Source: Minisyncoccota bacterium (GTDB lineage: Bacteria; Patescibacteriota; Minisyncoccia; Phycocordibacterales; UBA918). Taken from it: 64,000 nt of DNA. A model generated the notes under the pieces. It had not been told where the DNA came from. It did not search any database and worked only from the letters and a program-made list of their open reading frames with translations. Below are positions 18,104 through 57,267 of this stretch, one piece after another (position 1 is the first letter of the stretch; every line of letters starts with the position of its first letter). The position numbers and the translations under genes are program-made. The DNA lies in the NCBI GenBank assembly GCA_021734905.1, contig JAIPIB010000001.1, positions 2,230-66,229 of the forward strand, read 5' to 3'.

Positions 18104-19783
18104 ATGGAACCTTTAATAAGAAAAGCAATTGAAAACGCTCTTGAAGAACTCGGCATTACTGGTGTCCTTTTTGCTGTGGAACACCCCGCAGAAATTACTC
18201 ATGGTGATTACTCAACGAATGTTGCGATGGTGTGCGCTAAAAAGTTGGGGAAGAGCCCTCACGAAATTGCGGAGCAATTTCGTGAGGTACTTGAGGGAAA
18301 AATTTCTCATGTTGATTCAGTAAGTATTGCGGGCTCAGGGTTTATTAATTTTCACCTCACGCGTGATTTTTTCTCCGAAAAAATCACGGACGTGAATACA
18401 AATCCAGAAACATTTGGAAAAAATGATTCACTCAAAGGTGAAAATATTATTTTTGAATATACGAGTCCAAATCTCTTTAAACCACTTCACATTGGTAATC
18501 TTGTCGGGAACATCGTGGGTGAATCCATCTCACGACTTTTTGAATACGGTGGAGCAACACTTAATCGTGTTAATTATCCTTCTGATATTGGACTCACTGT
18601 TGCAAAAGGTGTTTGGGGACTCCAGAAGACAGGTGGAGATCCAAAGGATATTAATCAAATTGGCGATGCATACCGTGTAGGAAATGATGCATATGAACAT
18701 GATCCAGAGGCCAAGGAAGAAATTGAGTTTGTAAACCGATCTCTGTATCTTAACGACAATGAAGACCTTACAAATCTTCGTGCACAGGGAATAGAAACAT
18801 CACGTGCCCGACTTGCAGATTTATGTCGAATGCTCGGAACAACATTTGATACAGAAATTTTTGAAAGTGAGGTTAGTGCACTTGGTACGAAGATTGTTCG
18901 TGAAAATATTGGTAAGGTCTTTGAGGAAAGTAATGGGGCAGTCATATTTCGAGGTGAAAAATATGGTTTTCATACTCGTGTCTTTCTCAACTCGCAAGGA
19001 CTTCCAACATATGAAGCAAAGGATGTTGGAAACTTTGCAAAGAAGCAGGAAAAATACCCAGATTGGACACAAACTTTTGTAGTAACAGGTGGAGAACAAC
19101 GTGAATATTTTAAGGTGCTCATTGCCGCTCTCCGTGAGGTATTTCCTGATATAAGTCACAAAAAAATTGAGCACATTCCAACAGGTTTTCTTACGCTCAC
19201 TACAGGAAAAATGTCATCTCGAAAAGGAAACGTCCTTACAGGGGAGTCGTTGATTGCTGAGGTTAAGGATGAGGTAGAAGCTCGCGCGAAAGAAAGTAGG
19301 GCAGAGAACGTTACGGAACTTACCGAGCAAGTTTCCATCGGTGCGCTTAAATATCAGATTCTCCGTCAATCAGTCGGGTCCGATATTGTCTTTGATAAAG
19401 AACGAGCACTATCACTTGAGGGAGACTCTGGCCCGTACCTCATGTACACGCACGCGCGCATTTCCTCTATAGAAGAGAAGGCACATAAGATAGGGATGAA
19501 TTCTGATACAAAGGTTGCCCCAAGTGTTCCGTATGAAATTGAGAAGCTTATCTATCAGTTCCCTGAAGTCATCGTAAAAGCACAAACAGAACGAGCACCT
19601 CATTATGTGGTTACGTACCTTACTGCACTCGCAAGTTCATTTAATTCATTCTACGCACATGAAAAAATTATTGATAATGAAGATATGTACGCACCATACA
19701 AATTAGCGGTCGCGTCATCAGTAAAAAATATTCTCAGAAACGGACTCTGGGTACTTGGAATGAAAGCTCCCGAGAAAATGTGA
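18104..19783 (+). CDS. argS: arginine--tRNA ligase
   Basis: Class I HIGH-type motif SPNLFKPLHIGNLVGN and KMSSRKG (KMSK), length and N-terminal add-on domain fit ArgS. Confidence 0.8.
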   Translation: MEPLIRKAIENALEELGITGVLFAVEHPAEITHGDYSTNVAMVCAKKLGKSPHEIAEQFREVLEGKISHVDSVSIAGSGFINFHLTRDFFSEKITDVNTNPETFGKNDSLKGENIIFEYTSPNLFKPLHIGNLVGNIVGESISRLFEYGGATLNRVNYPSDIGLTVAKGVWGLQKTGGDPKDINQIGDAYRVGNDAYEHDPEAKEEIEFVNRSLYLNDNEDLTNLRAQGIETSRARLADLCRMLGTTFDTEIFESEVSALGTKIVRENIGKVFEESNGAVIFRGEKYGFHTRVFLNSQGLPTYEAKDVGNFAKKQEKYPDWTQTFVVTGGEQREYFKVLIAALREVFPDISHKKIEHIPTGFLTLTTGKMSSRKGNVLTGESLIAEVKDEVEARAKESRAENVTELTEQVSIGALKYQILRQSVGSDIVFDKERALSLEGDSGPYLMYTHARISSIEEKAHKIGMNSDTKVAPSVPYEIEKLIYQFPEVIVKAQTERAPHYVVTYLTALASSFNSFYAHEKIIDNEDMYAPYKLAVASSVKNILRNGLWVLGMKAPEKM

Positions 19784-19800
19784 AATGAGCAAAGGAATAA

Positions 19801-19858
19801 AGTGACTATTGCGAATTTCTGTCTCAGTTTTCTATTCCTGATGAAAACTGCTAGACGC
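19801..19858 (+). repeat. REP-like element, B-variant
   Basis: gtgactattgcgaatttctgtctcagttttctattcctgatgaaaactgctagacg; stem cagttttc/gaaaactg. Confidence 0.6.
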
Positions 19859-19904
19859 TGTTATATTTAAGATAATCTCGGTCGCTTGCAGCGACAATGC
19901 TGAA

Positions 19905-19950
19905 CTTCCTTCCTGATTTTCTATTCATAATGGAAATCACTGGAAGTTTC
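19905..19950 (+). repeat. REP-like hairpin with TATTCATAATG loop
   Basis: gaacttccttcctgattttc-tattcataatg-gaaatcactggaagtttcc. Confidence 0.55.
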
Positions 19951-19972
19951 CAACTACCTCAGTCTCTGCACA

Positions 19973-20030
19973 TAAGCGACTATTGCGAATTTTTATCGTT
20001 CATCATTAATAGTGCGTATTACCGGAAATC
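19973..20030 (+). repeat. REP-like element, partial (5' box only)
   Basis: gcgactattgcgaatttttatcgttcatcattaatagtgcg. Confidence 0.45.
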
Positions 20031-20105
20031 AATTCTTGCAGGTTTTGGCGCTCTACGGTAAAGTAGTTTTGGAATTCACGACATGGTCGTGGAAACAACA
20101 AGGAG

Positions 20106-20378
20106 ATGATAAAGATGAAGAATTCAATGAAGATACTTGGTCCCAGTGAGACTGCCTGGGCAGTCCAATGTGACGTTGAGGAAATAGATCCACAACAACT
20201 GTTTGCTCGAGATCTACTCGTGAAGAAAGCGAATGTGCCGTTTGATCAGGCGGATGAATACGTCAGGAGAATCGGGACATCTGCCTCGGCGAACCTCAAG
20301 CTCCTTCTTCAAAAGTCGCTTGATCCAGCCGACGACTTCCGTTCCTTCGAAGCAAGTCTGGCGACGGTGGCACATTGA
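20106..20378 (+). CDS. hypothetical small protein (90 aa) in a GC-rich islet
   Basis: Only gene in window with a clear SD (aaggag 4-9 nt upstream); own terminator at 20403-20427; GC visibly ~50% vs ~38% surroundings. Confidence 0.4.
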   Translation: MIKMKNSMKILGPSETAWAVQCDVEEIDPQQLFARDLLVKKANVPFDQADEYVRRIGTSASANLKLLLQKSLDPADDFRSFEASLATVAH

Positions 20379-20402
20379 GGACGAAAAACCAGCAAAGAGG
20401 AA

Positions 20403-20427
20403 AGGCCGGCACTGTCGGCCTTTTTCT
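20403..20427 (+). terminator. intrinsic terminator (ggccggcactgtcggcc + TTTTT)
   Basis: seen in sequence directly after 90-aa ORF. Confidence 0.7.
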
Positions 20428-20481
20428 ATGAGTAGCAGAGCTAATGATTTATGCTATGATGCTTAGGCATGTCTGATATAC

Positions 20482-23400
20482 ATGCTTATTATTATGTCTG
20501 ATATACATAACCATATGGATACAAATAAAGAGGATGAGAAGAGTGATGTTGCGCGTCGTGAAGAGGATGTTCTGGCGTTTTGGAACGAGCGCGATATTTT
20601 TAATAAAAGTCTAGAAAAGGAATCACCGAATGGTGATTTTGTGTTTTATGACGGTCCACCGTTTGCGACGGGGACTCCCCACTACGGGCATATTCTTGCG
20701 GGGACAATCAAAGATGCTATTCCAAGGTTTTGGACAATGAATGGATACCGCGTGAAGCGGAAGTGGGGTTGGGACTGCCATGGTCTTCCCCTTGAAAATA
20801 TTATTGAGAAGAGGCTTGGACTTGCAACAAAGAGGGATATTGAAGAACTTGGCGTAAAGAAATTTAACGAGGCTGCACGGGATGCAGTGCTTGAGTATGA
20901 GGATGACTGGAAAGTGGTCGTGCCACGAATGGGACGGTGGGCAGACATGGAACATGACTACAAGACAATGGATTCAACATATACCGAATCAGTATGGTGG
21001 GTTTTTTCTGAACTTAACCGTAAGGGGCTTGTGTATGGAGGATTTAAGTCAATGCACCTCTGTCCACGTTGTGGTACTACACTCTCAAACTTTGAGGTGA
21101 ATCAGGGATACAAAGATATCAAGGATATTGCTGTAACGGTAGAACTTCCACTTCTTGATGAGGAAGGAAAAATCACTGACACATCTCTTCTTGTGTGGAC
21201 GACGACTCCGTGGACACTTCCAGGGAACATGGCTGCAGCAGTGCACAATGATATTGAGTACGTAGTAGTTGAAAAAAAAGATGAAGGTGAGGGAGAATTA
21301 GTGCGCTTCATTGTTGCAAAAGGCAGACTCGAAGCAATTTTCGGAGGTCAGGAATACACCATCGTCGAGGAGATAAAAGGAAGTGAGCTTGTGGGAAAAT
21401 CATATCAACCTCCTTTCGACTATTTTCAGAAACAAGAATTTCAACATAAAGAAAAGGCATGGAAAATTTACCACGCAGACTATGTTGAGCTTGGTGAGGA
21501 TGGAACAGGCGCGGTACATATTGCTCCTGCGTATGGAGAAGAGGATATGGAGCTCGCAAAAAAAGAAGGATTTCCTATCATGCACCATGTTGATGAGTTG
21601 GGACACTTCAAAGATTTTGTAACTGATTTTAAGGGGCAGTTGGTTAAGCCAAAGGATGATGACGATGCTGGAGTAACTCACCTTGAGGCCGATATAGAGA
21701 TTGTTAAGGCCTTGAAAGTATCCGGAAAATTGTTTCAAAAGGAAAATATTACGCACTCGTATCCACACTGTTGGCGATGTGACACTCCGCTTATTAACTA
21801 CGCAACAACATCATGGTTTGTTCGTGTAACTGATCTCAGAGATCGTCTTGTCGAAGAGAACAGTAAGGTATGCTGGGTTCCTGAACACGTCGGGAGAGCA
21901 CGATTTGGAAAATGGCTTGAGGGTGCTCGTGACTGGGCAATATCACGACAACGCTATTGGGGAGCACCACTGCCAATTTGGAAGAATCAAAAAACTGGTG
22001 AAGCAAAAATTATTGGTTCACTCAGTGACCTCCAGCAGTATGTTCGAAAAACTGGGAATTCGTATTTCCTCACACGTCATGGAGAATCAGAATTTAATAC
22101 GAAGTGGATTTTGAACGGGACCACTGGTGTTGAAAACGGACTTACTGAAAAAGGGAAAGAACAAGTTGACACTGCTTCAGCAATTCTTAAAGATGAAAAG
22201 ATAGACCTTATCTACCACTCTCCACTTGAAAGAACAACCGAGACAGCGCTAAAAATTGCACAAACACTCGGACTTGGAGAGGACTCACTTATTGCAGATG
22301 ATCGTTTGAAAGAGATGCAATTTGGTGAATTTGAGGGAAAAGAAGTCAATGATTATCTAGCCTTCTTTGGGAGTGGCTACAATCGACTTATTATGCATCC
22401 TGAGGGCGGTGAGTCATGGAGTGATGTGAAACGACGCGTTGGAGCATTTCTTTATGAAATAGATTCAAAACACACGGGGAAGCGTATTCTCATTGTTTCT
22501 CACAATGGTACGCTTCAAATGCTTCAGGCAGTTGCACAAGGCCTTGAACATGAGAGACTAGGCCATCTCGTTGGAGAAGATAGACTCGATATACAGAACG
22601 CAGAAGTTCGAGCGTTTTCATTTGTTCCAATGCCACATAACGACGATTACGTTCTCGATTTTCACCGGCCATACATTGATGAGATTGGACTCGTTGATAC
22701 AGATGGAGAAATTATGAAACGCATCCCCGACGTCTTTGATTGTTGGTTTGAGTCTGGCTCTATGCCGTATGCACAAAACCACTACCCATTTGAAAATAAA
22801 GATGTTTTTAACGCAGAGCAAGGGCGAGGGTTTCCGGCACAATTTATCGCGGAAGGCCTCGACCAAACCCGAGGATGGTTTTACTCACTTATTGTTTTAG
22901 GAGTGTCACTCTTCGGTAAGTCGCCCTACGAAAACGTTATTGTGAATGGCCTTGTTCTTGCCGAAGACGGAAAGAAGATGAGTAAACGTTTACAGAATTA
23001 CCCAGATCCGATGGAACTTGCTGATCGGGTTGGCGCCGATGCGATGCGGTACTACCTTCTTTCTTCGTCGATTGTTCGTGGGGAAGATCTTAATTTCTCA
23101 GAAAAAGAAGCACTTGAATTGCAGAGAAAAAATATTGGACGCCTTCACAACGTACTCGCGATGTATCAAATGTATGCGGACGAAGGTATCGCGCCAAGTA
23201 ACAGCTCAGAGAACCCACTTGACCGGTGGATACTTTCTCGAACAAATGAAATGCTTCGTGACGTTACAGTAGGATATAAGAATTACGAGCTCGACAAAGC
23301 AACACGTCCAATCGCAGACTGCATTGAGGATCTCTCAGTCTGGTATTTGCGCCGTTCTCGTGAGCGCTTGAAGGGGGGTGATAGCAATGATAAAAAACAC

Positions 23401-24048
23401 GCACTGGGGACACTTCGCTATGTGTTACAGAGCTTGTCTCTAGTGATGGCGCCGGTTATGCCTTTCTACGCAGAACACCTTTTTCAACGTGTTCGTGAAG
23501 CTAATGATGCAGAAAGTGTCCACTTAATGAATTGGCCTAGCGTAGGAGCTGTAGATGCAGACATTCTTTCAGGGATGAGTGAAGTGAGGCGTATTGTTAC
23601 AGAGGCTCTTGAACTGAGAACAAAGGCAAATATGAAAGTTCGTCAGCCACTCGCAAAACTCACCTTTGGTTCTGATGTTCCAAGCATGAAAGATGATTTA
23701 TTTTTCTTGTTAGTGGATGAGGTAAATGTGAAAGTTGTGGAAAAAATAAACGATAAAGAAAAAACAGCAGTATGGCTCGACACGACTATTACCGAAGAGC
23801 TTAAGCGTGAAGGTGACGTCCGAGAGCTTATGCGAAGTATTCAGGATTCCAGAAAGGTGAAAGGACTGAGTCCACAAGACAGGATAGTGCTCCGTGTTTC
23901 AGAAGGGACAAAACAACTTATTTCTGGATTCGAAATAGAAATAATGTCTGTCGTTGGAGCTGTAGATATACGCACTGATTCGAATGTGTCTGGCGGGGAA
24001 GTCATCATTGATTCTGTTATCTATAACTTTGCAATAGAAATGCAATAA
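20482..24048 (+). CDS. ileS: isoleucine--tRNA ligase, type 2 (eukaryote-like), with inserted histidine-phosphatase (PGM-type) domain
   Basis: FYDGPPFATGTPHYGHIL (type-2 IleS HIGH), GWDCHGLPLE, DVFDCWFESGSMPYAQ, KMSKRLQNYPDP; internal ~190 aa FLTRHGESEFN...ILIVSHNGTL matches phosphoglycerate-mutase-type histidine phosphatase. Confidence 0.9.
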   Translation: MLIIMSDIHNHMDTNKEDEKSDVARREEDVLAFWNERDIFNKSLEKESPNGDFVFYDGPPFATGTPHYGHILAGTIKDAIPRFWTMNGYRVKRKWGWDCHGLPLENIIEKRLGLATKRDIEELGVKKFNEAARDAVLEYEDDWKVVVPRMGRWADMEHDYKTMDSTYTESVWWVFSELNRKGLVYGGFKSMHLCPRCGTTLSNFEVNQGYKDIKDIAVTVELPLLDEEGKITDTSLLVWTTTPWTLPGNMAAAVHNDIEYVVVEKKDEGEGELVRFIVAKGRLEAIFGGQEYTIVEEIKGSELVGKSYQPPFDYFQKQEFQHKEKAWKIYHADYVELGEDGTGAVHIAPAYGEEDMELAKKEGFPIMHHVDELGHFKDFVTDFKGQLVKPKDDDDAGVTHLEADIEIVKALKVSGKLFQKENITHSYPHCWRCDTPLINYATTSWFVRVTDLRDRLVEENSKVCWVPEHVGRARFGKWLEGARDWAISRQRYWGAPLPIWKNQKTGEAKIIGSLSDLQQYVRKTGNSYFLTRHGESEFNTKWILNGTTGVENGLTEKGKEQVDTASAILKDEKIDLIYHSPLERTTETALKIAQTLGLGEDSLIADDRLKEMQFGEFEGKEVNDYLAFFGSGYNRLIMHPEGGESWSDVKRRVGAFLYEIDSKHTGKRILIVSHNGTLQMLQAVAQGLEHERLGHLVGEDRLDIQNAEVRAFSFVPMPHNDDYVLDFHRPYIDEIGLVDTDGEIMKRIPDVFDCWFESGSMPYAQNHYPFENKDVFNAEQGRGFPAQFIAEGLDQTRGWFYSLIVLGVSLFGKSPYENVIVNGLVLAEDGKKMSKRLQNYPDPMELADRVGADAMRYYLLSSSIVRGEDLNFSEKEALELQRKNIGRLHNVLAMYQMYADEGIAPSNSSENPLDRWILSRTNEMLRDVTVGYKNYELDKATRPIADCIEDLSVWYLRRSRERLKGGDSNDKKHALGTLRYVLQSLSLVMAPVMPFYAEHLFQRVREANDAESVHLMNWPSVGAVDADILSGMSEVRRIVTEALELRTKANMKVRQPLAKLTFGSDVPSMKDDLFFLLVDEVNVKVVEKINDKEKTAVWLDTTITEELKREGDVRELMRSIQDSRKVKGLSPQDRIVLRVSEGTKQLISGFEIEIMSVVGAVDIRTDSNVSGGEVIIDSVIYNFAIEMQ

Positions 24049-24623
24049 TGGCATACCAAACGTACATTACCGAAGCGCTCGTATGTGGGAGTACCGATAG
24101 TCATACTGCAGACCGGTCCTTTCTGCTCTTTACGAGAGAAGCAGGGATGATTTTTGCGCACGCAAAGAGTGTTCGCGAGGAGCGGTCGAAACAGAGGTAC
24201 GCACTTCAAGACTGCTCACATATTCGAGTGACACTCATCCGCGGGAAGAGTGGATGGAAAATTGCAGGCGTTGAATCATTTCACAACTTCTATACTCTTG
24301 CAAAAACTCGAGAAACTCGAGCATTTTTGCGCAACACGATACACTTACTCAGACGAGTGGTCCATGGTGAGACGTCATACAAGGAAATCTTTGATGACGT
24401 TATATCTGCATGTCTAAAATCAGAAGAATATTCGCATAAAAAGCTTGAGCTCGTCCTTTTTGCACGCATTTTACATGCACTTGGATACATTGCCTCAGTT
24501 AAAGAACTCGAACCACTATTGAAAAAAGAGATGCCATTTTCTTTGATTGCCACGTTAGTGCCAGAAGATGAAGAAATATGTCGAGAGGCGATTGACCATG
24601 CACTTGTCCAGAGCCAATTGTAG
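24048..24623 (+). CDS. recO: DNA repair protein RecO-like (short)
   Basis: N-terminal OB-fold pattern (..FLLFTREAGMIFAHAKSVREERSKQRYALQ..HIRVTL) resembles RecO; start codon overlaps ileS stop; glyQS nearby as in common recO-glyQS synteny. Confidence 0.45.
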   Translation: MAYQTYITEALVCGSTDSHTADRSFLLFTREAGMIFAHAKSVREERSKQRYALQDCSHIRVTLIRGKSGWKIAGVESFHNFYTLAKTRETRAFLRNTIHLLRRVVHGETSYKEIFDDVISACLKSEEYSHKKLELVLFARILHALGYIASVKELEPLLKKEMPFSLIATLVPEDEEICREAIDHALVQSQL

Positions 24624-26818: not shown

Positions 26819-28210
26819 ATGGCACAAGAAAAAACAGATAAAATGGAAAAAATAGTGTCGCTCTGTAAGCGCCGGGGGTTTGTGTTTCAAGGGTCTGAAA
26901 TATATGGCGGCCTTGCCGGAGTGTATGATTTTGGTCCACATGGAGTTGAACTTCTCAACAACATCAAGAAATCTTGGTGGAAAGAAAATGTCTACGATAA
27001 AGAAAACTATTTTGGGATTGATTCAGGAATGTTTAAAAATCCTAAAGTATGGGAGGCCTCGGGACACACAAGTGGTTTTTCTGACCCACTCGCTGAATGT
27101 CGTGAGTGTAATACACGTATTCGGGTTGATAAAGAGCTTGAACGAGTCGGGGTCACTGCTGACGAAAAGATGTCGGACGAAGAGATAAACAGACTTTTTA
27201 ATGAGCACAGAGATGAAATTGTATGTACAAAATGTGGCAAGAAAGATTTCACCGAAGCTCGTTCGTTTAACTTGCTCGTCAAATCTAACCTTGGTGACTT
27301 TACTTCAGAAGCTAGTGAGCCAGTGTATTTACCAGGTGAAGCGTGTCAAGGAATTTATCTCAATTTTAAAAATATTGTTGATACGATGCAACCGAAAGTT
27401 CCATTCGGTGTTTCTCAGATTGGGAAAGCATTTAGAAATGAAATTTCACCACGTAATTTTCTGTTCCGAACACGCGAGTTTGAACAAGCAGATACACAAT
27501 ATTTTGTTCGACCAAATGAAAACAAAGAGGCATTTGAAAGGATTAAAAAAGAACGGTGGGATTGGTACATATCTCTTGGTATTGATGAAAAGAAACTTCG
27601 TTTCAAGCAGCATGAGAACCTTGTTTTCTACGCAGCTGATGCATGGGATATAGAGTACGAATTTCCAACAGGGTTTGATGAAATTGAAGGAATTCACGAT
27701 CGTACTGATTATGATCTCACGCAGCACATGAAGTTTTCAGGGGTTGACTTGCGGTACACAGATCCAAATTCAGGAGAGAAGTATATTCCATGGATTCTTG
27801 AGACGTCGATGGGTCTCGGCAGGGCATTCTTTGCAGTGATGACAGATGCATATTATGAAGAAGAGATGAATGGAGAGACACGTGTTGTTTTGAAGCTTGC
27901 GAAGCATCTTTCGCCATACCGAGCAGCGGTCTCACCACTCCTTAAAAATAAACCAGAGCTTGCAGAAAAAGCTCGCGAGGTCTTTCTCATGCTCAAAAAG
28001 ATGTTTGGAAATATTGCATGGGACGATAATGGCAATATTGGAAAGCGGTACCGGCGACAGGACGAGATCGGCACACCAGCGTGTATTGTCATCGATTTTG
28101 AGACCCTTGAAGGTGATACAAAAGATACTGTGACCGTGCGTGATCGTGATACAGGTGCCCAGAACCGAGTCCCTATTGCCGAGCTCGTCACATATTTGAC
28201 TCAGGTGTAA
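26819..28210 (+). CDS. glyQS: glycine--tRNA ligase (alpha2 dimeric type)
   Basis: RRGFVFQGSEIYGGLAGVYDFGPHG.. canonical class II GlyRS N-terminus. Confidence 0.85.
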   Translation: MAQEKTDKMEKIVSLCKRRGFVFQGSEIYGGLAGVYDFGPHGVELLNNIKKSWWKENVYDKENYFGIDSGMFKNPKVWEASGHTSGFSDPLAECRECNTRIRVDKELERVGVTADEKMSDEEINRLFNEHRDEIVCTKCGKKDFTEARSFNLLVKSNLGDFTSEASEPVYLPGEACQGIYLNFKNIVDTMQPKVPFGVSQIGKAFRNEISPRNFLFRTREFEQADTQYFVRPNENKEAFERIKKERWDWYISLGIDEKKLRFKQHENLVFYAADAWDIEYEFPTGFDEIEGIHDRTDYDLTQHMKFSGVDLRYTDPNSGEKYIPWILETSMGLGRAFFAVMTDAYYEEEMNGETRVVLKLAKHLSPYRAAVSPLLKNKPELAEKAREVFLMLKKMFGNIAWDDNGNIGKRYRRQDEIGTPACIVIDFETLEGDTKDTVTVRDRDTGAQNRVPIAELVTYLTQV

Positions 28211-28221
28211 TATCAAATTGC

Positions 28222-29673
28222 ATGGAGAAAGAAAAATTTTATCTTACGACAACTCTTCCATACGTGAATGCAAGTCCACATATTGGGTTTGCTACAGAAA
28301 TTATTCGTGCTGATGTTATAGCACGGTATCAGAAGGGGCTTGGAAAAGATATCTTTTTCAATACGGGTACTGATGAGCACGGACAAAAGATTTATGATAA
28401 AGCTACTGAGGCAGGTAAAACTCCTCAAGAATATGTCGACGGATACTCAGCTGAATTTCAAAAGATTATTCCTTTACTTGGTATTTCTTCAGATATTCAT
28501 TTTGTTCGTACCACTGATGATCATCATAAAATAGCTGCTCAGGAGATGTGGCGGAGATGTGTTGCAAACGGAGATATTTATAAAGCAAATCATCAAGTTA
28601 AATATTGTAAGGGGTGCGAGCTTGAAAAGACTGATTCAGAGCTTGAAGATGGAAAGTGCCCACTTCACACAACATATGAGATTGAAATTCGTGAAGAGGA
28701 AAATTATTTCTTCAGATTTTCAAAATATCAAGAAGCACTCCTTGAACTCTATAGGAAAAACCCAACGTTTGTTGTTCCTGAGTTCAGACTCAAAGAGATA
28801 ACATCATTTGTTGAAGGGGGCTTGCAGGACTTTAGTGTTTCACGACTCAAGTCAAAAATGTCATGGGGTATTCCAGTCCCCGATGATGAAGACCATGTGA
28901 TGTACGTATGGTTTGATGCGCTTACAAATTACATATCGACGACAGGATGGCCAGAAAAAGAAGATTTTGGCGGTTGGTGGCCGGGGATTCAATTTGCAGG
29001 GAAGGACAACCTCCGACAGCAGAGCGCGGTGTGGCAGGCCATGCTTCTTTCTGCAAAGCTCCCAACCTCAAAACAAATATACATTGGGGGATTCATTAAT
29101 AGCGGGGGACAGAAGATGAGTAAATCACTCGGAAATGTCATTAGTCCTCATGAGCTTGTAGAGCGCTATGGTACCGATGCAACCAGATATCTTCTCCTTC
29201 GACATGTGCATCCATATGAAGATACTGATATTACGTGGGAGCGTCTCGATGAGTGGTACACCGCGAATCTTGTGAATGGTCTGGGAAATCTTACATCACG
29301 AATTTTAAAAATGTCAGAGACTTATTTAGATAAAAGTCCGTATTCTCAAGGAGTTGAAGTTATGAATGCTGTTAGGAATGATACAAAAGAAAGAGAGTTT
29401 GAATACGCACTCAGATCGTTTAATTTACAAGTAGCTATTGATGAAATTTGGAGAATTGTGGGTCAAATTGATTTACAAATTACACATGAGGAACCATTTA
29501 AGGTGGTAAAAGAAGACAAGAAAAAGGCAAAGGAGATGATAGAAGTATATTTATACTACCTTGTTAGAATAGGCCTGCTTGTAGAACCATTTATGCCAGA
29601 GACCTCAAAGACAATCCTTGATGCAATCAAGACAAACAAAAAACCAGAAAATCTATTCCCACGACTTCTGTAA
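28222..29673 (+). CDS. metG: methionine--tRNA ligase (short form)
   Basis: LPYVNASPHIGFATE (HIGH), zinc-knuckle CKGCELEK..CPLH, KMSKSLGNVI. Confidence 0.85.
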   Translation: MEKEKFYLTTTLPYVNASPHIGFATEIIRADVIARYQKGLGKDIFFNTGTDEHGQKIYDKATEAGKTPQEYVDGYSAEFQKIIPLLGISSDIHFVRTTDDHHKIAAQEMWRRCVANGDIYKANHQVKYCKGCELEKTDSELEDGKCPLHTTYEIEIREEENYFFRFSKYQEALLELYRKNPTFVVPEFRLKEITSFVEGGLQDFSVSRLKSKMSWGIPVPDDEDHVMYVWFDALTNYISTTGWPEKEDFGGWWPGIQFAGKDNLRQQSAVWQAMLLSAKLPTSKQIYIGGFINSGGQKMSKSLGNVISPHELVERYGTDATRYLLLRHVHPYEDTDITWERLDEWYTANLVNGLGNLTSRILKMSETYLDKSPYSQGVEVMNAVRNDTKEREFEYALRSFNLQVAIDEIWRIVGQIDLQITHEEPFKVVKEDKKKAKEMIEVYLYYLVRIGLLVEPFMPETSKTILDAIKTNKKPENLFPRLL

Positions 29674-52465: not shown

Positions 52466-53025
52466 ATTCCTTACAGGAATGTTAAGGGTGTATGGTGGAT
52501 GCCTAGGCTTCAAGAAGCGATGAAGGACGTGATATGGCTGCGATAAGCGTGGGGGAGATGCCAAATAATCGTTATATCCCACGATTTCCGAATGAGGAAA
52601 CTCACCTGCTTACGGCAGGTACCCTTGAATGAGGGAGCGTACCCAGGGAAGTGAAACATCACAGTACCTGGAGGAAAAGAAAGCAAAAAACGGGACTTTC
52701 TTTCTGACTTTTGAACAGCTTGCTGTTCTCCATTGAAGTCAGGAAGAAGGTTCTCGCGATTCCCTTAGTAGCGGCGAGCGAAAAGGGTAGAGCCCAAACC
52801 ATTCGTATTTATATGGATGGGGTTGTAGGGCAGTAGTGTCATTTAGTTGAGAAGAGTTACAAAATGTTGTCATAATAAAACGCGTTGGGAAGCGCGACCC
52901 AAGAAGGTAATAGTCCTGTATATGAAATTTCAACAACTCTTTTGCTACTGTTCCTGAGTAGTTCGGGACATGAATAGCCCGAATGAATCTGGGAGGACTA
53001 ACTCCTAAGGCTAAATATTCTTGAA

Positions 53026-53071
<46 letters not shown>

Positions 53072-53639
53072 GGAGAGGGGAGTGAAATAGATCTGAAACC
53101 ATACATCTACAAGGAGTCGAAGCCCTGCGGGGCGACGGCGTGCCTATTGAAGAATGAGCCGGCGAGTGTATCTTTATTCTTTGTCTAAGTGGTAAACCCA
53201 CGGAGGCGTAGTGAAAGCGAGCGTGAATAGCGCGAATATAGAGTAAGGATACGACCCGAAGCGGGATGAGCTTGCCATGTGCAGGGTGAAGCGAAGGTAA
53301 AACTTCGTGGAGGCCCGAACCGGTTGGCCGTTCAAAACCATCGGATGACATGTGGTAGGGAGTGAAAAGCTAATCGAATTCCGTAATAGCTGGTTCTCTC
53401 CGAAACAGCTTTAGGGTTGGCGTCGTGTGTTCCTCCTGGGGGTAGAGCTCTGGAAGGTCTAAATAGGGAGAAATCTCGTTAGACCTATCAAACTACGAAT
53501 ACCAGGTAGTCACAGCACGGCAGTTAGACTACGGGGGAGAAGCTCCGTTGGTCGAAAGGGAAACAGCCCAGATCGCCAGTTAAGGTCCCAAAATATATGC
53601 TCAGTGCAACTTGAGGAGGTGAGGATTCATAAACAGTCA

Positions 53640-53671
<32 letters not shown>

Positions 53672-54514
53672 GAAAGCGTAACAGCTCACTGATCGAGAGT
53701 CCTTGCGCCGAAGATGATCGGGGCTCAAGCATATTACCGAAACTGCGGATGTCACTTTTCTTCGGAAAAGTGGCGTGGTAGGAGAGCGTTCTGTTCTGCA
53801 ATGAAGCCAAGGTGTAAACCACGGTGGAGCGTACAGAAGTGAGAATGCCGGCACAAGTAACCGCAAGACGGGTGAGAACCCCGTCCGCCGAAATACCGAG
53901 GTTTCCTTCGCTATGCTGATCAGCGAAGGGTTAGTCGGTCCTAAGCCGATCCCGAATGGGGGAGGCGATGGATAGCAGGTTAATATTCCTGCACACTGTT
54001 GCGTTGCGATGGAGGGACGGAGGGTTGTACCCAAAGCATCTTATTGGATTGGTGCTGGAACTATGAGGAGGTGTGGTAGGCAAATCCGCCACACAATACT
54101 CCGAGTAGGGTCTGAACGTAAGGCTTCGGCCGAGCGAATGAGGGGAGCACGCTTCCTAGAAAAACTTCTAAGCATAAACGTAACGGTTCCGTACCGCAAA
54201 CCGACACAGGTGGTAGGGTCGAGAAGACCAAGGCGAACGAGTGAGGGGTCCTTAAGGAACTCGGCAAAAAAGCGGCCGTAACTTCGGGATAAGGCCTGCC
54301 TTTGCCCCTTCGGGGGTTAAAGGCCGCAGCGAAAGATTTCCTGGCAACTGTTTAACAAAAACACAGCTCCCTGCGAACACGTAAGTGGATGTATAGGGGG
54401 TGACGCCTGACCAATGCCGGAAGGTTAAATATGGGGGGTCTTATGTATTTATATGTAAGGCTGGACTATATAAGCCCCGGTCAATGTCAGCGATAACTAT
54501 AATCGTTCTAAGGT

Positions 54515-54712
54515 TCAGCAATTTTTCTTCGGAAAAATTGCTGATAGGACTGGAACGATTATGGGTTAAACATATAACGCCGAACAAGCTACCTTGCATC
54601 CAGAAATGTATGCATAGTCCAAATTGCAACCAACAAGAGACCAAATGTTGCACATCTTAACTATCGAAAGATAAAAGATGAAGATAGAGTCCTTCTGCAA
54701 TAGGAATAGAAG
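54515..54712 (+). other. 198-nt intervening sequence in 23S domain IV between AAGGU and AGCG (E. coli ~L1917-1923 region); degenerate group-I-like mini-intron?
   Basis: Exon sequence contiguous in E. coli; insert preceded by U, ends in G; contains gatgaagatagagtcc nearly identical to S-element segment of the downstream intron; starts with perfect UUCG-type hairpin cagcaattttt-cttcgg-aaaaattgctg. Confidence 0.55.
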
Positions 54713-55279
54713 AGCGCAATTCCTTGTCGGGTAAGTTCCGACGTGCACGAAAGGCGTAATGACTGGGAAACTGTCTCAAGGACCTGCTCGGTGAAAATAC
54801 AATGGGGGTGAAGATGCCCCCTACCTGCAGTTAGACGAAAAGACCCCAGGAGCTTTACTGTAGCTTCGTATTGGGGCTGTTGAATTAATGCGTAGCATAG
54901 AAGGGAGACTTTGAAGCGAGCTTTCGGGTTTCGTGGAGTCGCCAGTGAAATACCTTTCTTTAATTTGGCAGTTCCTAACCTCTTAGAAAAAATCTAAGAG
55001 AGACAGTGCGTGGCAGGCAGTTTTAGTGGGGCGCTACCCTCCTAAAAAGTAACGGAGGGGTCTCAAGGTTGGCTAGGCGCGAATGGAAACCGTGCCGATA
55101 GTGTAATGGCATAAGCCAGCTTGACTGTAAGGCGTCAGTGCCGAACAGATGCGAAAGCAGAGCATAGTGAACCGACGGTACGCTTTAGACGCGGCCGGAG
55201 ATTATCTGACAAAAGTTACCCTGGGGATAACAGGCTAGTCGTGCCCAAGCGTCCATAGCGACGGCACGGTTCGGCACCT

Positions 55280-55646
55280 TAACTTATTTATGGTATTTCA
55301 CTCAGCAATGGGTGTTTATATCAAGTTATAAATACATCGGGGTGCCTAGAGTAGCAATACTCTATAAAAATAAATTGGCTATATGCTGGAACTCCTGAGT
55401 CAAAATTAAGCATACAAGGCCCAAACAGTAATTTGAAAAAATAAGCTGTGTGGCTTGAAAACATTGTATGTTCAGGACAATCAGCAGGGAAGACTTCTAA
55501 GTTATTTAAAATAATATGAAGAACCCTCAGAGACTACACGCCAATCTCCAACTCTAAGTAGAGCTGGATGAAGATATAGTCCGATCCTCGTAGTAATACG
55601 AGTGTATAGTAAAAGTAGATAGAATTTTTACTATACAAAACGACAG
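55280..55646 (+). other. group I self-splicing intron (367 nt, no ORF) in 23S domain V at E. coli L2500-equivalent site
   Basis: Interrupts GGCACCU|CGAUGUCGGCUC; 5' exon ends in U, intron ends in G; candidate IGS gggtgt (55310-55315) pairs with exon gcaccu giving U-G at splice site; conserved Q aatcagcagg (55479-55488), R cctcagagactacacg (55525-55540), S aagatatagtcc (55571-55582). Confidence 0.85.
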
Positions 55647-55676
55647 CGATGTCGGCTCAACTTATCCTGGGGCTGG

Positions 55677-55712
<36 letters not shown>

Positions 55713-55717
55713 AAGTT

Positions 55718-55755
<38 letters not shown>

Positions 55756-56160
55756 CTCTATCTACTGCAGGCGTCGATTCTTGAAGAGATTTGTCCCTAG
55801 TACGAGAGGACCGGGATGAACTGACCTCTGGTCTATCTGCTGTCACGCCAGTGGCACCGCAGAGTAGCTATGTTGGGAATGGATAACTGCTGAAAGCATC
55901 TAAGCAGGAAGCCAACTCTAAGATTAGGAATCATTAAGTCCCCTGAGAGATGATCAGGTTGATAGGCACTAGGTGTAAGCGCAGCAATGTGTGGAGCCGA
56001 GGTGTACTAATTAGACGTAATTCCTGTAGGGAATGCTGTACATCGCCCCAAATGAACAAAATTAACGCACTGTTTTTAATTTTGGACATTTAGGAGTGAA
56101 AAGCTATACAATTTTTTGGAGTATTGTTTTATGTTTGTCGTCGTTTTAGAATATGTGATT

Positions 56161-56261: not shown

Positions 56262-56730
56262 ATTGACAATTGAATACTGTAATGTGGTTTTTAAACCATA
56301 AAGATCAGAGACGAATCAAAATTTCCGCTATCGGTCGCCAACCTCCCAAGTTTCAGGCATATCCGATACGTGTGTGTTTACATTTTGATTGACTTGCTCA
56401 GGTAGGCATTCCATGGCGGCTTTTGCCTCCTAACCTGCCGCCCGCGATTCTTCGCTACCTTGCGCAGTCATGCAAGTTGGGAGCTTTCTCCCCGTCTCTC
56501 CCTCGTTCTTTGTCTGTCGGTGGTGTATAGAAATTGTACGATTTTTCTGCCTTTCTTCATTCTTTTGGGATGTAGCTCAGCTAGAGGGTTATTGCAACTT
56601 CTTAGGTAGAGTGCCAATTGTTCCCGGTTGTCAACATCCGGTAAAAAGATTGGAGGTCGCTGGTTCGAATCCAGCCATCCCGACCATTGCTATTTCTTTG
56701 GAAATAGCATCACATTACAGTATTCAATAG
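56262..56730 (+). other. inverted repeat attgaatactgtaatgtg (56270-56287) / cacattacagtattcaat (56711-56728) bracketing the tRNA: candidate processing stem
   Basis: 18-bp perfect complementarity seen in sequence. Confidence 0.5.
56566..56686 (+). tRNA. aberrant over-long tRNA gene (121 nt) with canonical acceptor/T-arm/encoded CCA but ~22-nt insert in D-loop and ~23-nt insert in anticodon loop; isotype unresolved
   Basis: 5' tgggatg-ta-gctc-ag.. and 3' ..gaggtc-gctgg-ttcgaat-ccagc-catcccg-a-cca; anticodon stem ccaat/attgg encloses 30 nt instead of 7. Confidence 0.5.

Positions 56731-57147: not shown

Positions 57148-57267
<120 letters not shown>

Follow-up and report, generated by a model that had tools for sequence, protein, structure and literature searches.

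A histidine phosphatase nested in, or encoded next to, isoleucyl-tRNA synthetase in Parcubacteria

The window analyzed here is a 64,000-nucleotide stretch of contig JAIPIB010000001.1 from a Minisyncoccota bacterium. Its ileS gene, at 20482..24048 on the + strand, is one unbroken open reading frame (ORF) of 1188 aa that encodes a type-2 isoleucyl-tRNA synthetase (IleRS) with a histidine phosphatase nested within it. The protein (P0205) is already in NCBI as MCF7816154.1, an entry that begins at Met12 of the window ileS (nt 20515) and is named 'class I tRNA ligase family protein [Candidatus Pacebacteria bacterium]'. Along the protein, the order of Pfam domains is tRNA-synt_1, His_Phos_1 (PF00300), tRNA-synt_1, Anticodon_1 and DUF5915. 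That is, tRNA-synt_1 is matched in two stretches (E=9.9e-135) with PF00300 embedded between them, as the sequence-only reading that drew attention to the gene had expected. The TIGR00392 ileS model, scoring 889.8 bits vs. a cutoff of 621.4, is also matched in two pieces parted by the insert. The nested phosphatase is an ancient companion of IleRS that has been inherited along with it throughout Parcubacteria, so its presence in the window genome is no accident, and the conserved partnership of the phosphatase with ileS, nested or split, is the new result reported here.

In PDB, the synthetase part finds its best matches (E 6e-209 to 2e-196) in T. thermophilus IleRS, P. megaterium IleRS2 and the enzymes of human, yeast and Candida, whereas the type-1 IleRS of S. 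aureus is much further off (E 7.5e-88). On these scores the window synthetase is type 2, closer to the eukaryote/archaeal-like IleRS than to bacterial type 1; this had also been the earlier judgment. The HIGH signature reads HYGH (aa 67–70; 20680..20691, +) and the KMSKS signature KMSKR (aa 832–836; 22975..22989, +), and residues H67, G69, H70 and K832–K835 are invariant across 69 fusion homologues. The CP1 editing domain extends over about aa 215–420 (21124..21741, +), its borders being drawn by analogy with the Sc and Ca IleRS. Its motifs, TTTPWT (aa 240–245) and GTGAVHIAP (aa 341–349), are present and invariant in the same 69 proteins, and the region is well folded in the predicted structure. 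Pfam places the anticodon-binding domain, Anticodon_1, at aa 914–1058 (23221..23655, +) and a C-terminal DUF5915 domain at aa 1088–1186 (23743..24039, +). The synthetase part has the look of an ordinary housekeeping IleRS under selection, and we infer that it charges tRNA-Ile normally.

The insertion site is in CP3. When the protein is aligned with the human cytoplasmic enzyme (9w01), its aa 24–519 correspond to chain residues 13–490, and aa 724–1099 correspond to residues 496–893. Thus, a module of about 204 residues (aa 520–723; 22039..22650, +) stands in place of a 5-residue CP3 loop. CP3 comprises residues 459–526 in yeast IleRS and 473–534 in Candida IleRS, and the yeast CP2–CP3 linker, ARDWNVSRNRYWG, forms part of the wall of the pocket that receives the 3′ end of tRNA and reveromycin A (PMC7955072, PMC7191050). 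By analogy with yeast IleRS, the window linker is ARDWAISRQRYWG (aa 482–494; 21925..21963, +). It is followed by the N-terminal half of CP3, placed from the alignment and published domain maps at aa 494–519 (21961..22038, +) and ending ...PIWKNQKTGEAKIIGSLSDLQQY. The insert begins 25 residues past the linker, between the 'IIGSLSDLQQY' helix and 'DFHRPYIDE'; at its far end, a C-junction linker, PMPHNDDYVLD, leads back into CP3, which resumes at FHRPYIDE (22627..22683, +, by alignment). The position after the CP2–CP3 linker means that the domain is nested in the tip of CP3 and not beside CP1 and the editing site. The sequence-only reading had given the span of the insert (22030–22630) to within about 20 nt; its placement of the domain next to CP1/editing was mistaken. 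The structure model of the full-length window IleRS has a pTM of 0.60.

Within the module, Pfam places His_Phos_1 at aa 529–696 (22066..22569, +), with E=4.6e-37 and 128–133 bits vs. a cutoff of 21.7, over profile positions 2–169 of 194. The RHGE motif (aa 532–535; 22075..22086, +), located by motif and alignment, supplies Arg532 and the nucleophile His533, both of which are kept in 157/157 aligned domains. The second phosphate-binding Arg, Arg584 of the 'ERT' motif (22231..22233, +), is present in 161/161 aligned domains; the proton donor, Glu644 of GGES (22411..22413, +), in 159/160; and the second catalytic His, His674 of VSHNG (aa 672–676; 22501..22503, +), in 157/158. The whole Arg-His-Arg-Glu-His set is intact in 152 of the 153 phosphatase domains of the cluster representatives. 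The insert has the α/β fold of the histidine phosphatase superfamily, and the structure model of the domain is of high confidence. Judged from these features, the insert is a complete branch-1 histidine phosphatase, catalytically competent and apparently active, and probably a phosphomonoesterase resembling PhoE, PspA and CobC. The motifs first quoted for the gene do exist, those of the synthetase included, and the proposal of a complete in-frame branch-1 domain with both catalytic His motifs is borne out. The likening of the domain to mutases and SixA is not, as its closest solved relatives are the small-substrate metabolic phosphatases PspA, PhoE, GpgP and CobC. The substrates suggested in that reading (aminoacyl-adenylate, a 3′ phosphate on tRNA, Ap4A) are conjectures.

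Specific identities were tried and rejected, as follows. For phosphoglycerate mutase (dPGM), TIGR01258 gives 46.3 vs. 81.7 with only profile positions 4–105 covered, dPGM_arch gives 83.9 vs. 225, every PRK dPGM model lies far under its cutoff, and the PDB dPGMs align to the N-terminal half of the domain only. The scores also fall short for the CobC alpha-ribazole phosphatase (TIGR03162, 96.5 vs. a cutoff of 162.9), the PspA phosphoserine phosphatase (NF045917, 82 vs. 350) and SixA (TIGR00249, 30.5 vs. 74.5). All the NCBIfam equivalog cutoffs are missed, and a substrate is not transferable by homology. The PADLOC models of defence-system proteins gave no match to the insert or to its free-standing relatives P0015 and P0008, which are described below.

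To see how far the fusion extends, one genome per species was scanned, and a junction-spanning 270-aa segment was used as the query of a HMMER search with a threshold of E≤1e-30. The nested fusion is found in at least 294 genomes. The HMMER query matched at least 148 representatives of 50%-identity clusters; nearly all of these match the whole segment unbroken, at about positions 440–770 in proteins of up to about 1200 aa. The best 80 of the at least 294 genomes are all metagenome-assembled genomes (MAGs) of Patescibacteria/Parcubacteria, drawn from the Nomura-, Kaiser-, Adler-, Zambryski-, Taylor-, Yonath- and Vogelbacteria, Paceibacteria and Minisyncoccia, and they include the closed 0.99-Mb genome CP060229.1. 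The best 120 full-length matches all contain PF00133 and PF00300, and the 119 other than the window protein are 63–76% identical to it.

In all 80 of the best species-genome loci, one reading frame covers both IleS and insert when aligned with the window protein, and the one-frame join is found again in 37 metagenome contigs. The GC content of the insert, 0.40–0.44, equals that of its flanks. Since the same in-frame architecture recurs in independent assemblies and the composition is uniform, an assembly chimera, a frameshift or chance is ruled out at the sequence level. That the insert is a non-catalytic structural element, or an artefact of assembly or frameshift, is scarcely credible. Nothing speaks for it but the general frequency of large inserts in proteins of the Candidate Phyla Radiation (CPR), and it is opposed by the near-universal catalytic pentad and the high-confidence model as well as by the recurrent in-frame join and uniform composition.

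The Pfam domains of the fusion entries are precomputed, yet the entry names are generic and none mentions a phosphatase. There is no NCBIfam model for a phosphatase-containing IleRS, and the name given by PGAP is 'class I tRNA ligase family protein'. No description of an IleRS–histidine phosphatase fusion or partnership was found in the literature searched. Thus, the sequence-only reading's remark that the architecture is undescribed stands for that literature, and it needs to be set beside the wide presence of the fusion in databases. Of its proviso that such fusions might turn out to be widespread and annotated, the first half has come true, homologues being found inside IleS in many other genomes, and the second has not.

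Some members of the family depart from the common form. Ten of 150 representatives carry more than one phosphatase copy. Tandem arrays of two to four His_Phos_1 domains, almost all catalytically intact, are found at the CP3 site of P0154, P0146, P0157, P0140, P0195, P0117 and P0201. In P0129, P0131 and P0193, a second nesting site is used: an extra copy follows some 380 residues further on, after the KMSKS region and before the anticodon-binding domain. These tandem and second-site forms are known from protein representatives alone; none occurs among the 168 DNA loci fetched. A second, more distant His_Phos_1-like ORF, with 75 bits to the insert profile, lies about 5 kb downstream of a nested-form ileS (L022:11832–12281). 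Fusion-type ileS genes also occur in MAGs labelled 'Bacillota bacterium' and 'Candidatus Azotimanducaceae' (loci L069 and P0273), and many are labelled 'uncultured Candidatus Saccharibacteria'; these odd labels are probably errors of binning or of taxonomic labelling. P0416 itself (197 aa) is a free-standing phosphatase that JGI labels 'isoleucyl-tRNA synthetase', presumably a label transferred from fused homologues.

Gene fission seemed to have occurred in P0001 and P0006 and was rejected in both cases, as L001 is a frameshifted assembly of 2x coverage and L002 is a relative recoded for UGA=Trp. In the latter (L002:4423–8016; GCA_027024305.1, JALVSO010000054.1), and in L003 (ENA ERZ23491057), the fusion ileS has 10 in-frame TGA codons. 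Nine of the ten align to columns occupied by Trp in 40/40 homologues; 15 TGG codons are used as well, and reading the contig with code 11 breaks up its other genes too. Because nine TGA codons fall on Trp columns, UGA appears to encode Trp in this Parcubacteria-type MAG, in a code-4-like manner, and not the Gly of code 25. The literature searched yielded no description of UGA=Trp in a Parcubacteria-type MAG.

The phosphatase also exists as a separate gene. The closest free-standing relatives of the insert, P0008, P0015 and P0016 (171–221 aa), are each encoded directly upstream of an ileS that lacks the insert (961–985 aa). The split loci and the window share a gene order, namely, L20-L35-IF3, smpB, argS, [phosphatase], ileS, recO. 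The free-standing form is abundant, with at least 120 clusters of proteins about 198 aa long; their database names are 'histidine phosphatase family protein [Candidatus Nealsonbacteria / Minisyncoccales]' or 'PhoE'. When metagenomes were scanned with the free-standing subfamily, 80 loci were obtained: in 37, the phosphatase is the upstream gene; in 37, it is nested in frame in CP3; in two, it follows argS with ileS convergent and adjacent; and four were incomplete or of insufficient length. The full set of 166 loci comprises 120 nested, 41 upstream, two convergent-adjacent and three unclassifiable cases. None of the 166 (163 of them classified) has a phosphatase unlinked from ileS. The median distance from the phosphatase stop to the ileS start in split loci is 4 nt, and several loci have −4 overlaps of the kind typical of translational coupling.

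The linkage holds over deep divergence, with IleS core identity going down to about 40%, and it has persisted where the IleS type changed and where ileS was inverted. The more distant His_Phos_1 relatives P0022, P0019 and P0030 are not near ileS, and since they lack the linkage, the linkage defines a subfamily. We propose an IleRS-associated histidine phosphatase subfamily whose members are nested in CP3 or adjoin ileS. An end-to-end N-terminal read-through fusion occurs in 0 of the 41 split loci, though one lost stop codon would suffice to make it, and none of 168 loci has both an upstream and a nested copy. The idea that the free-standing protein docks electrostatically was considered, its isoelectric point (pI) being about 10 vs. 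about 6.4 for the nested form. It was dropped when nested members of the same clade, and their IleS core, proved equally basic; the pI gap is a lineage composition effect and so is no evidence for docking.

The two arrangements are interleaved on the trees. The nested L089 and L090, for example, are 74% identical to the free-standing P0015. By Fitch parsimony, 11 state changes are counted on the phosphatase neighbor-joining (NJ) tree and six on the IleS-core NJ tree (863 columns, 134 taxa; 5–9 over 30 bootstraps), these being simple trees with midpoint rooting and without a species tree. The nested and split arrangements were thus interconverted several times, at least 5–9 on the IleS tree; in the clade to which the window belongs, every member is nested. 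One and the same CP3 loop serves as the site in all nested forms, which have in common a C-junction linker, P-x-N...LDFHRPYID, that is absent from the CP3 loops of split forms. Candidate routes between the states are repeated nesting, fission, domain-level gene conversion and lateral replacement of the whole module.

Split-form phosphatases that are 60–74% identical accompany two very different types of IleS. The first ('...PHRPWVDKVKIKCxKCG..VSRIPDVGNPWLDAGI', '...DVGNPWLDAGI') is found at L084, L091, L093, L095, L108, L118, L125, L137 and L139, and the second ('...DLHRPxIDE..C.C.G.MKR.PEV.DCWFDSG', '...EVxDCWFDSG') at L085, L087, L105, L106, L114, L127, L128 and L151. The presence of similar phosphatases upstream of both types implies that either ileS was replaced in situ or the phosphatase moved. 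A CxxC...CxxC zinc knuckle is retained in the CP3 of both types but has disappeared from the window clade.

The window ileS has conserved neighbours on either side, argS upstream (18104..19783, +) and a recO-like gene downstream (24048..24623, +). The argS–ileS spacer (19784..20481, 698 nt) is unusually long for a compact genome; it corresponds to the interval that houses the phosphatase gene in relatives of the split form. The spacer holds no phosphatase remnant, no T-box or other leader and no Rfam family, and its 90-aa ORF (20106–20378) has no Pfam match and no counterpart in any related locus. Four aminoacyl-tRNA synthetase (aaRS) genes lie on one strand between 18104 and 29673: argS, ileS, a class II aaRS (26819–28210, tRNA-synt_2b plus HGTP_anticodon) and metG (28222–29673), with recO and a DUF11 surface-type protein lying between the aaRS genes of the cluster. 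Further along is the 23S rRNA gene (52472–56030), which is 3559 nt long vs. 2925 nt for the model and contains a group I intron at 55328–55603 (92.8 bits to Rfam RF00028); CPR bacteria typically have introns in their rRNA. At 56566–56683, after the 23S and before the 5S rRNA gene (57155–57262), Rfam gives a tRNA match of 37.7 bits. ARAGORN finds no tRNA anywhere in the window, and this 118-nt match may be intron-containing or otherwise atypical.

What is the phosphatase doing at IleRS? We consider it an evenly poised proposition that the phosphatase is a dedicated IleRS partner with a coupled small substrate. It looks like a dedicated partner because it is always nested in or adjoining ileS and switches between the two states. 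The strongest argument that the functional link is real comes from the split genes and their invariable position beside ileS, which could not be seen from the window sequence by itself. The phosphatase would have been selected to be made with, and held at, IleRS, its substrate being tied to the IleRS reaction cycle, and the domain would hydrolyze a phosphomonoester via a phospho-His533 intermediate. The substrate might be a phosphoester or phosphoanhydride, small and nucleotide-like, that is met where the synthetic site opens, such as AMP, 2′/3′-nucleotides, pyrophosphate (PPi) or ApnA-type by-products. A macromolecular substrate would be less likely than a small one. The small substrate is favored because the nearest folds are small-molecule enzymes, because the cap loops vary between clades, because active copies amplify in tandem or sit at a second site, and because the enzyme is free in split lineages.

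Several observations weigh against a dedicated partner. The substrate-cap loops of the domain differ between clades, and the nested domain has diverged more quickly than the core of IleRS (in the closest bin, identity is 45% for the domain and 68% for the core), both of which also fit a broad-specificity metabolic enzyme that is merely co-expressed. Within the window, the phosphatase is found only on ileS, and argS, the class II aaRS and metG are without it, which would be hard to understand for a substrate that aaRSs in general release, AMP or PPi for instance. The switching counts come from trees of the simple kind noted above. Moreover, a long-conserved adjacency without functional link has a precedent in ileS-lspA of Proteobacteria. 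We know of no phosphate ester that matters specifically for IleRS.

A second possibility, which we hold to be real though somewhat improbable, is that the domain is an ordinary PhoE/PspA/CobC/GpgP-like metabolic phosphatase whose chemistry is unrelated to IleRS and which rides with ileS only for constitutive, stoichiometric expression in a little-regulated genome. Its nearest solved relatives are all metabolic small-molecule phosphatases; tandem amplification to two to four copies looks like dosage, and the second nesting site in some relatives and the lack of defence-system matches are in keeping with such a role, as are the variable cap loops and the faster evolution. Against a metabolic enzyme of this sort stand the ileS linkage in all 163 classifiable loci, which survived IleS type change and ileS inversion; the repeated split/nested switching, which involves one CP3 loop every time and in no case a terminal fusion, simple as that would be; and the failure to reach any NCBIfam equivalog cutoff for known metabolic phosphatases and mutases.

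It is possible, and we put it forward tentatively, that Ile-tRNA synthesis in Parcubacteria includes a new phosphate-removal step carried out by a dedicated phosphatase that is held at the CP3 tip or, where the genes are split, docks there. The phosphate would be removed from the 3′ end of tRNA-Ile, from a nucleotide that the synthetic site binds or gives off, or from IleRS itself, and the phosphatase would thereby license, repair or regulate aminoacylation. There are two further rival explanations. In one, which we think unlikely, the phosphatase repairs or licenses tRNA ends, removing a 2′/3′-phosphate, a cyclic phosphate or pyrophosphate remains from A76 of tRNA-Ile. Such damaged ends would be left by RNases or by toxin-mediated CCA pyrophosphorylation, and the IleRS-bound tRNA would be made chargeable. 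In the other, an inhibitory phosphate is removed from IleRS or another translation factor, e.g., to reverse the action of Hip-type kinase toxins. Protein phosphatases do have precedents in the superfamily (SixA, PGAM5, Sts-1/2, tau55), and the tight physical and genetic coupling to a single aaRS would suit one. However, no kinase is conserved in the neighbourhood, the likeness to protein-phosphatase members is below that to metabolic ones, and PADLOC gives no hit; the proposal is purely speculative, and we rate it as very improbable.

The closest known systems differ from the window protein in arrangement. PspA (4ij5, H. thermophilus), PhoE (1h2e, B. stearothermophilus), GpgP (6s2q, mycobacterial), HFP (9mmh, riboflavin pathway) and CobC (6e4b/6nru) are free-standing metabolic enzymes, whereas the window phosphatase is nested in IleRS or, in relatives, operonic with it. 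Canonical type-2 IleRSs (S. cerevisiae, C. albicans, human, T. thermophilus and P. megaterium IleRS2) have a colinear core (E~1e-200) and share with the window protein the HIGH and KMSKS signatures, CP1 editing site, CP2, CP3 and anticodon-binding domain, but have about 5 residues where it has 204. The histidine phosphatase fold has been recruited into other bifunctional proteins, i.e., the RNase H/acid phosphatase PRK07238 (Rv2228c type), the MutT1 Nudix plus histidine phosphatase (3fjy, 9cxx), PFK-2/FBPase-2 (1bif) and TFIIIC tau55 (2yn0); these are end-to-end fusions, none with an aaRS and none nested in a loop of another domain. An extra catalytic domain on IleRS is also seen in NF040702, 'ileS_w_GNAT', where the added domain is an N-acetyltransferase; the window protein scores 324.9 vs. 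a cutoff of 1999 for this model. As set out in PMC7694997 and PMC13215547, the MetRS of Mycoplasma penetrans has an appended aminotransferase domain that supplies its amino-acid substrate. It too is a class I housekeeping aaRS of a reduced-genome bacterium with a second active enzyme domain, and it differs in that the appendage is N-terminal, of another fold, confined to a single lineage and of known function. The domain in the window IleRS is a phosphatase nested in CP3; it extends across an entire superphylum-level group and has a split-gene counterpart. Thus, an aaRS with an added catalytic domain is already known as a kind, and the fusion described here is present, unremarked, in hundreds of database entries.

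To our knowledge, aminoacyl-tRNA synthetases are among the most conserved enzymes, and new catalytic domains inside their cores are rare; those that are understood, such as editing domains and the M. penetrans aminotransferase, have been informative. In Parcubacteria, a large radiation has kept the phosphatase tied to a single synthetase, and the nested form sits next to the pocket for the tRNA 3′ end. There is also an annotation gap, since 'class I tRNA ligase family protein' or 'PhoE' is all that the names of hundreds of entries convey. The fusion and the neighbourhood together give a signal of the kind that usually marks a real functional partnership. If phosphate removal by a domain held at CP3 proves true, it would add to the aminoacyl-tRNA synthetases a cis-acting accessory activity of a new class. 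If the link between phosphatase and IleRS is direct, it points to new chemistry in the translation of CPR bacteria; if it is not, the family would illustrate clearly how, in nature, a domain can enter and leave a single permissive loop again and again.

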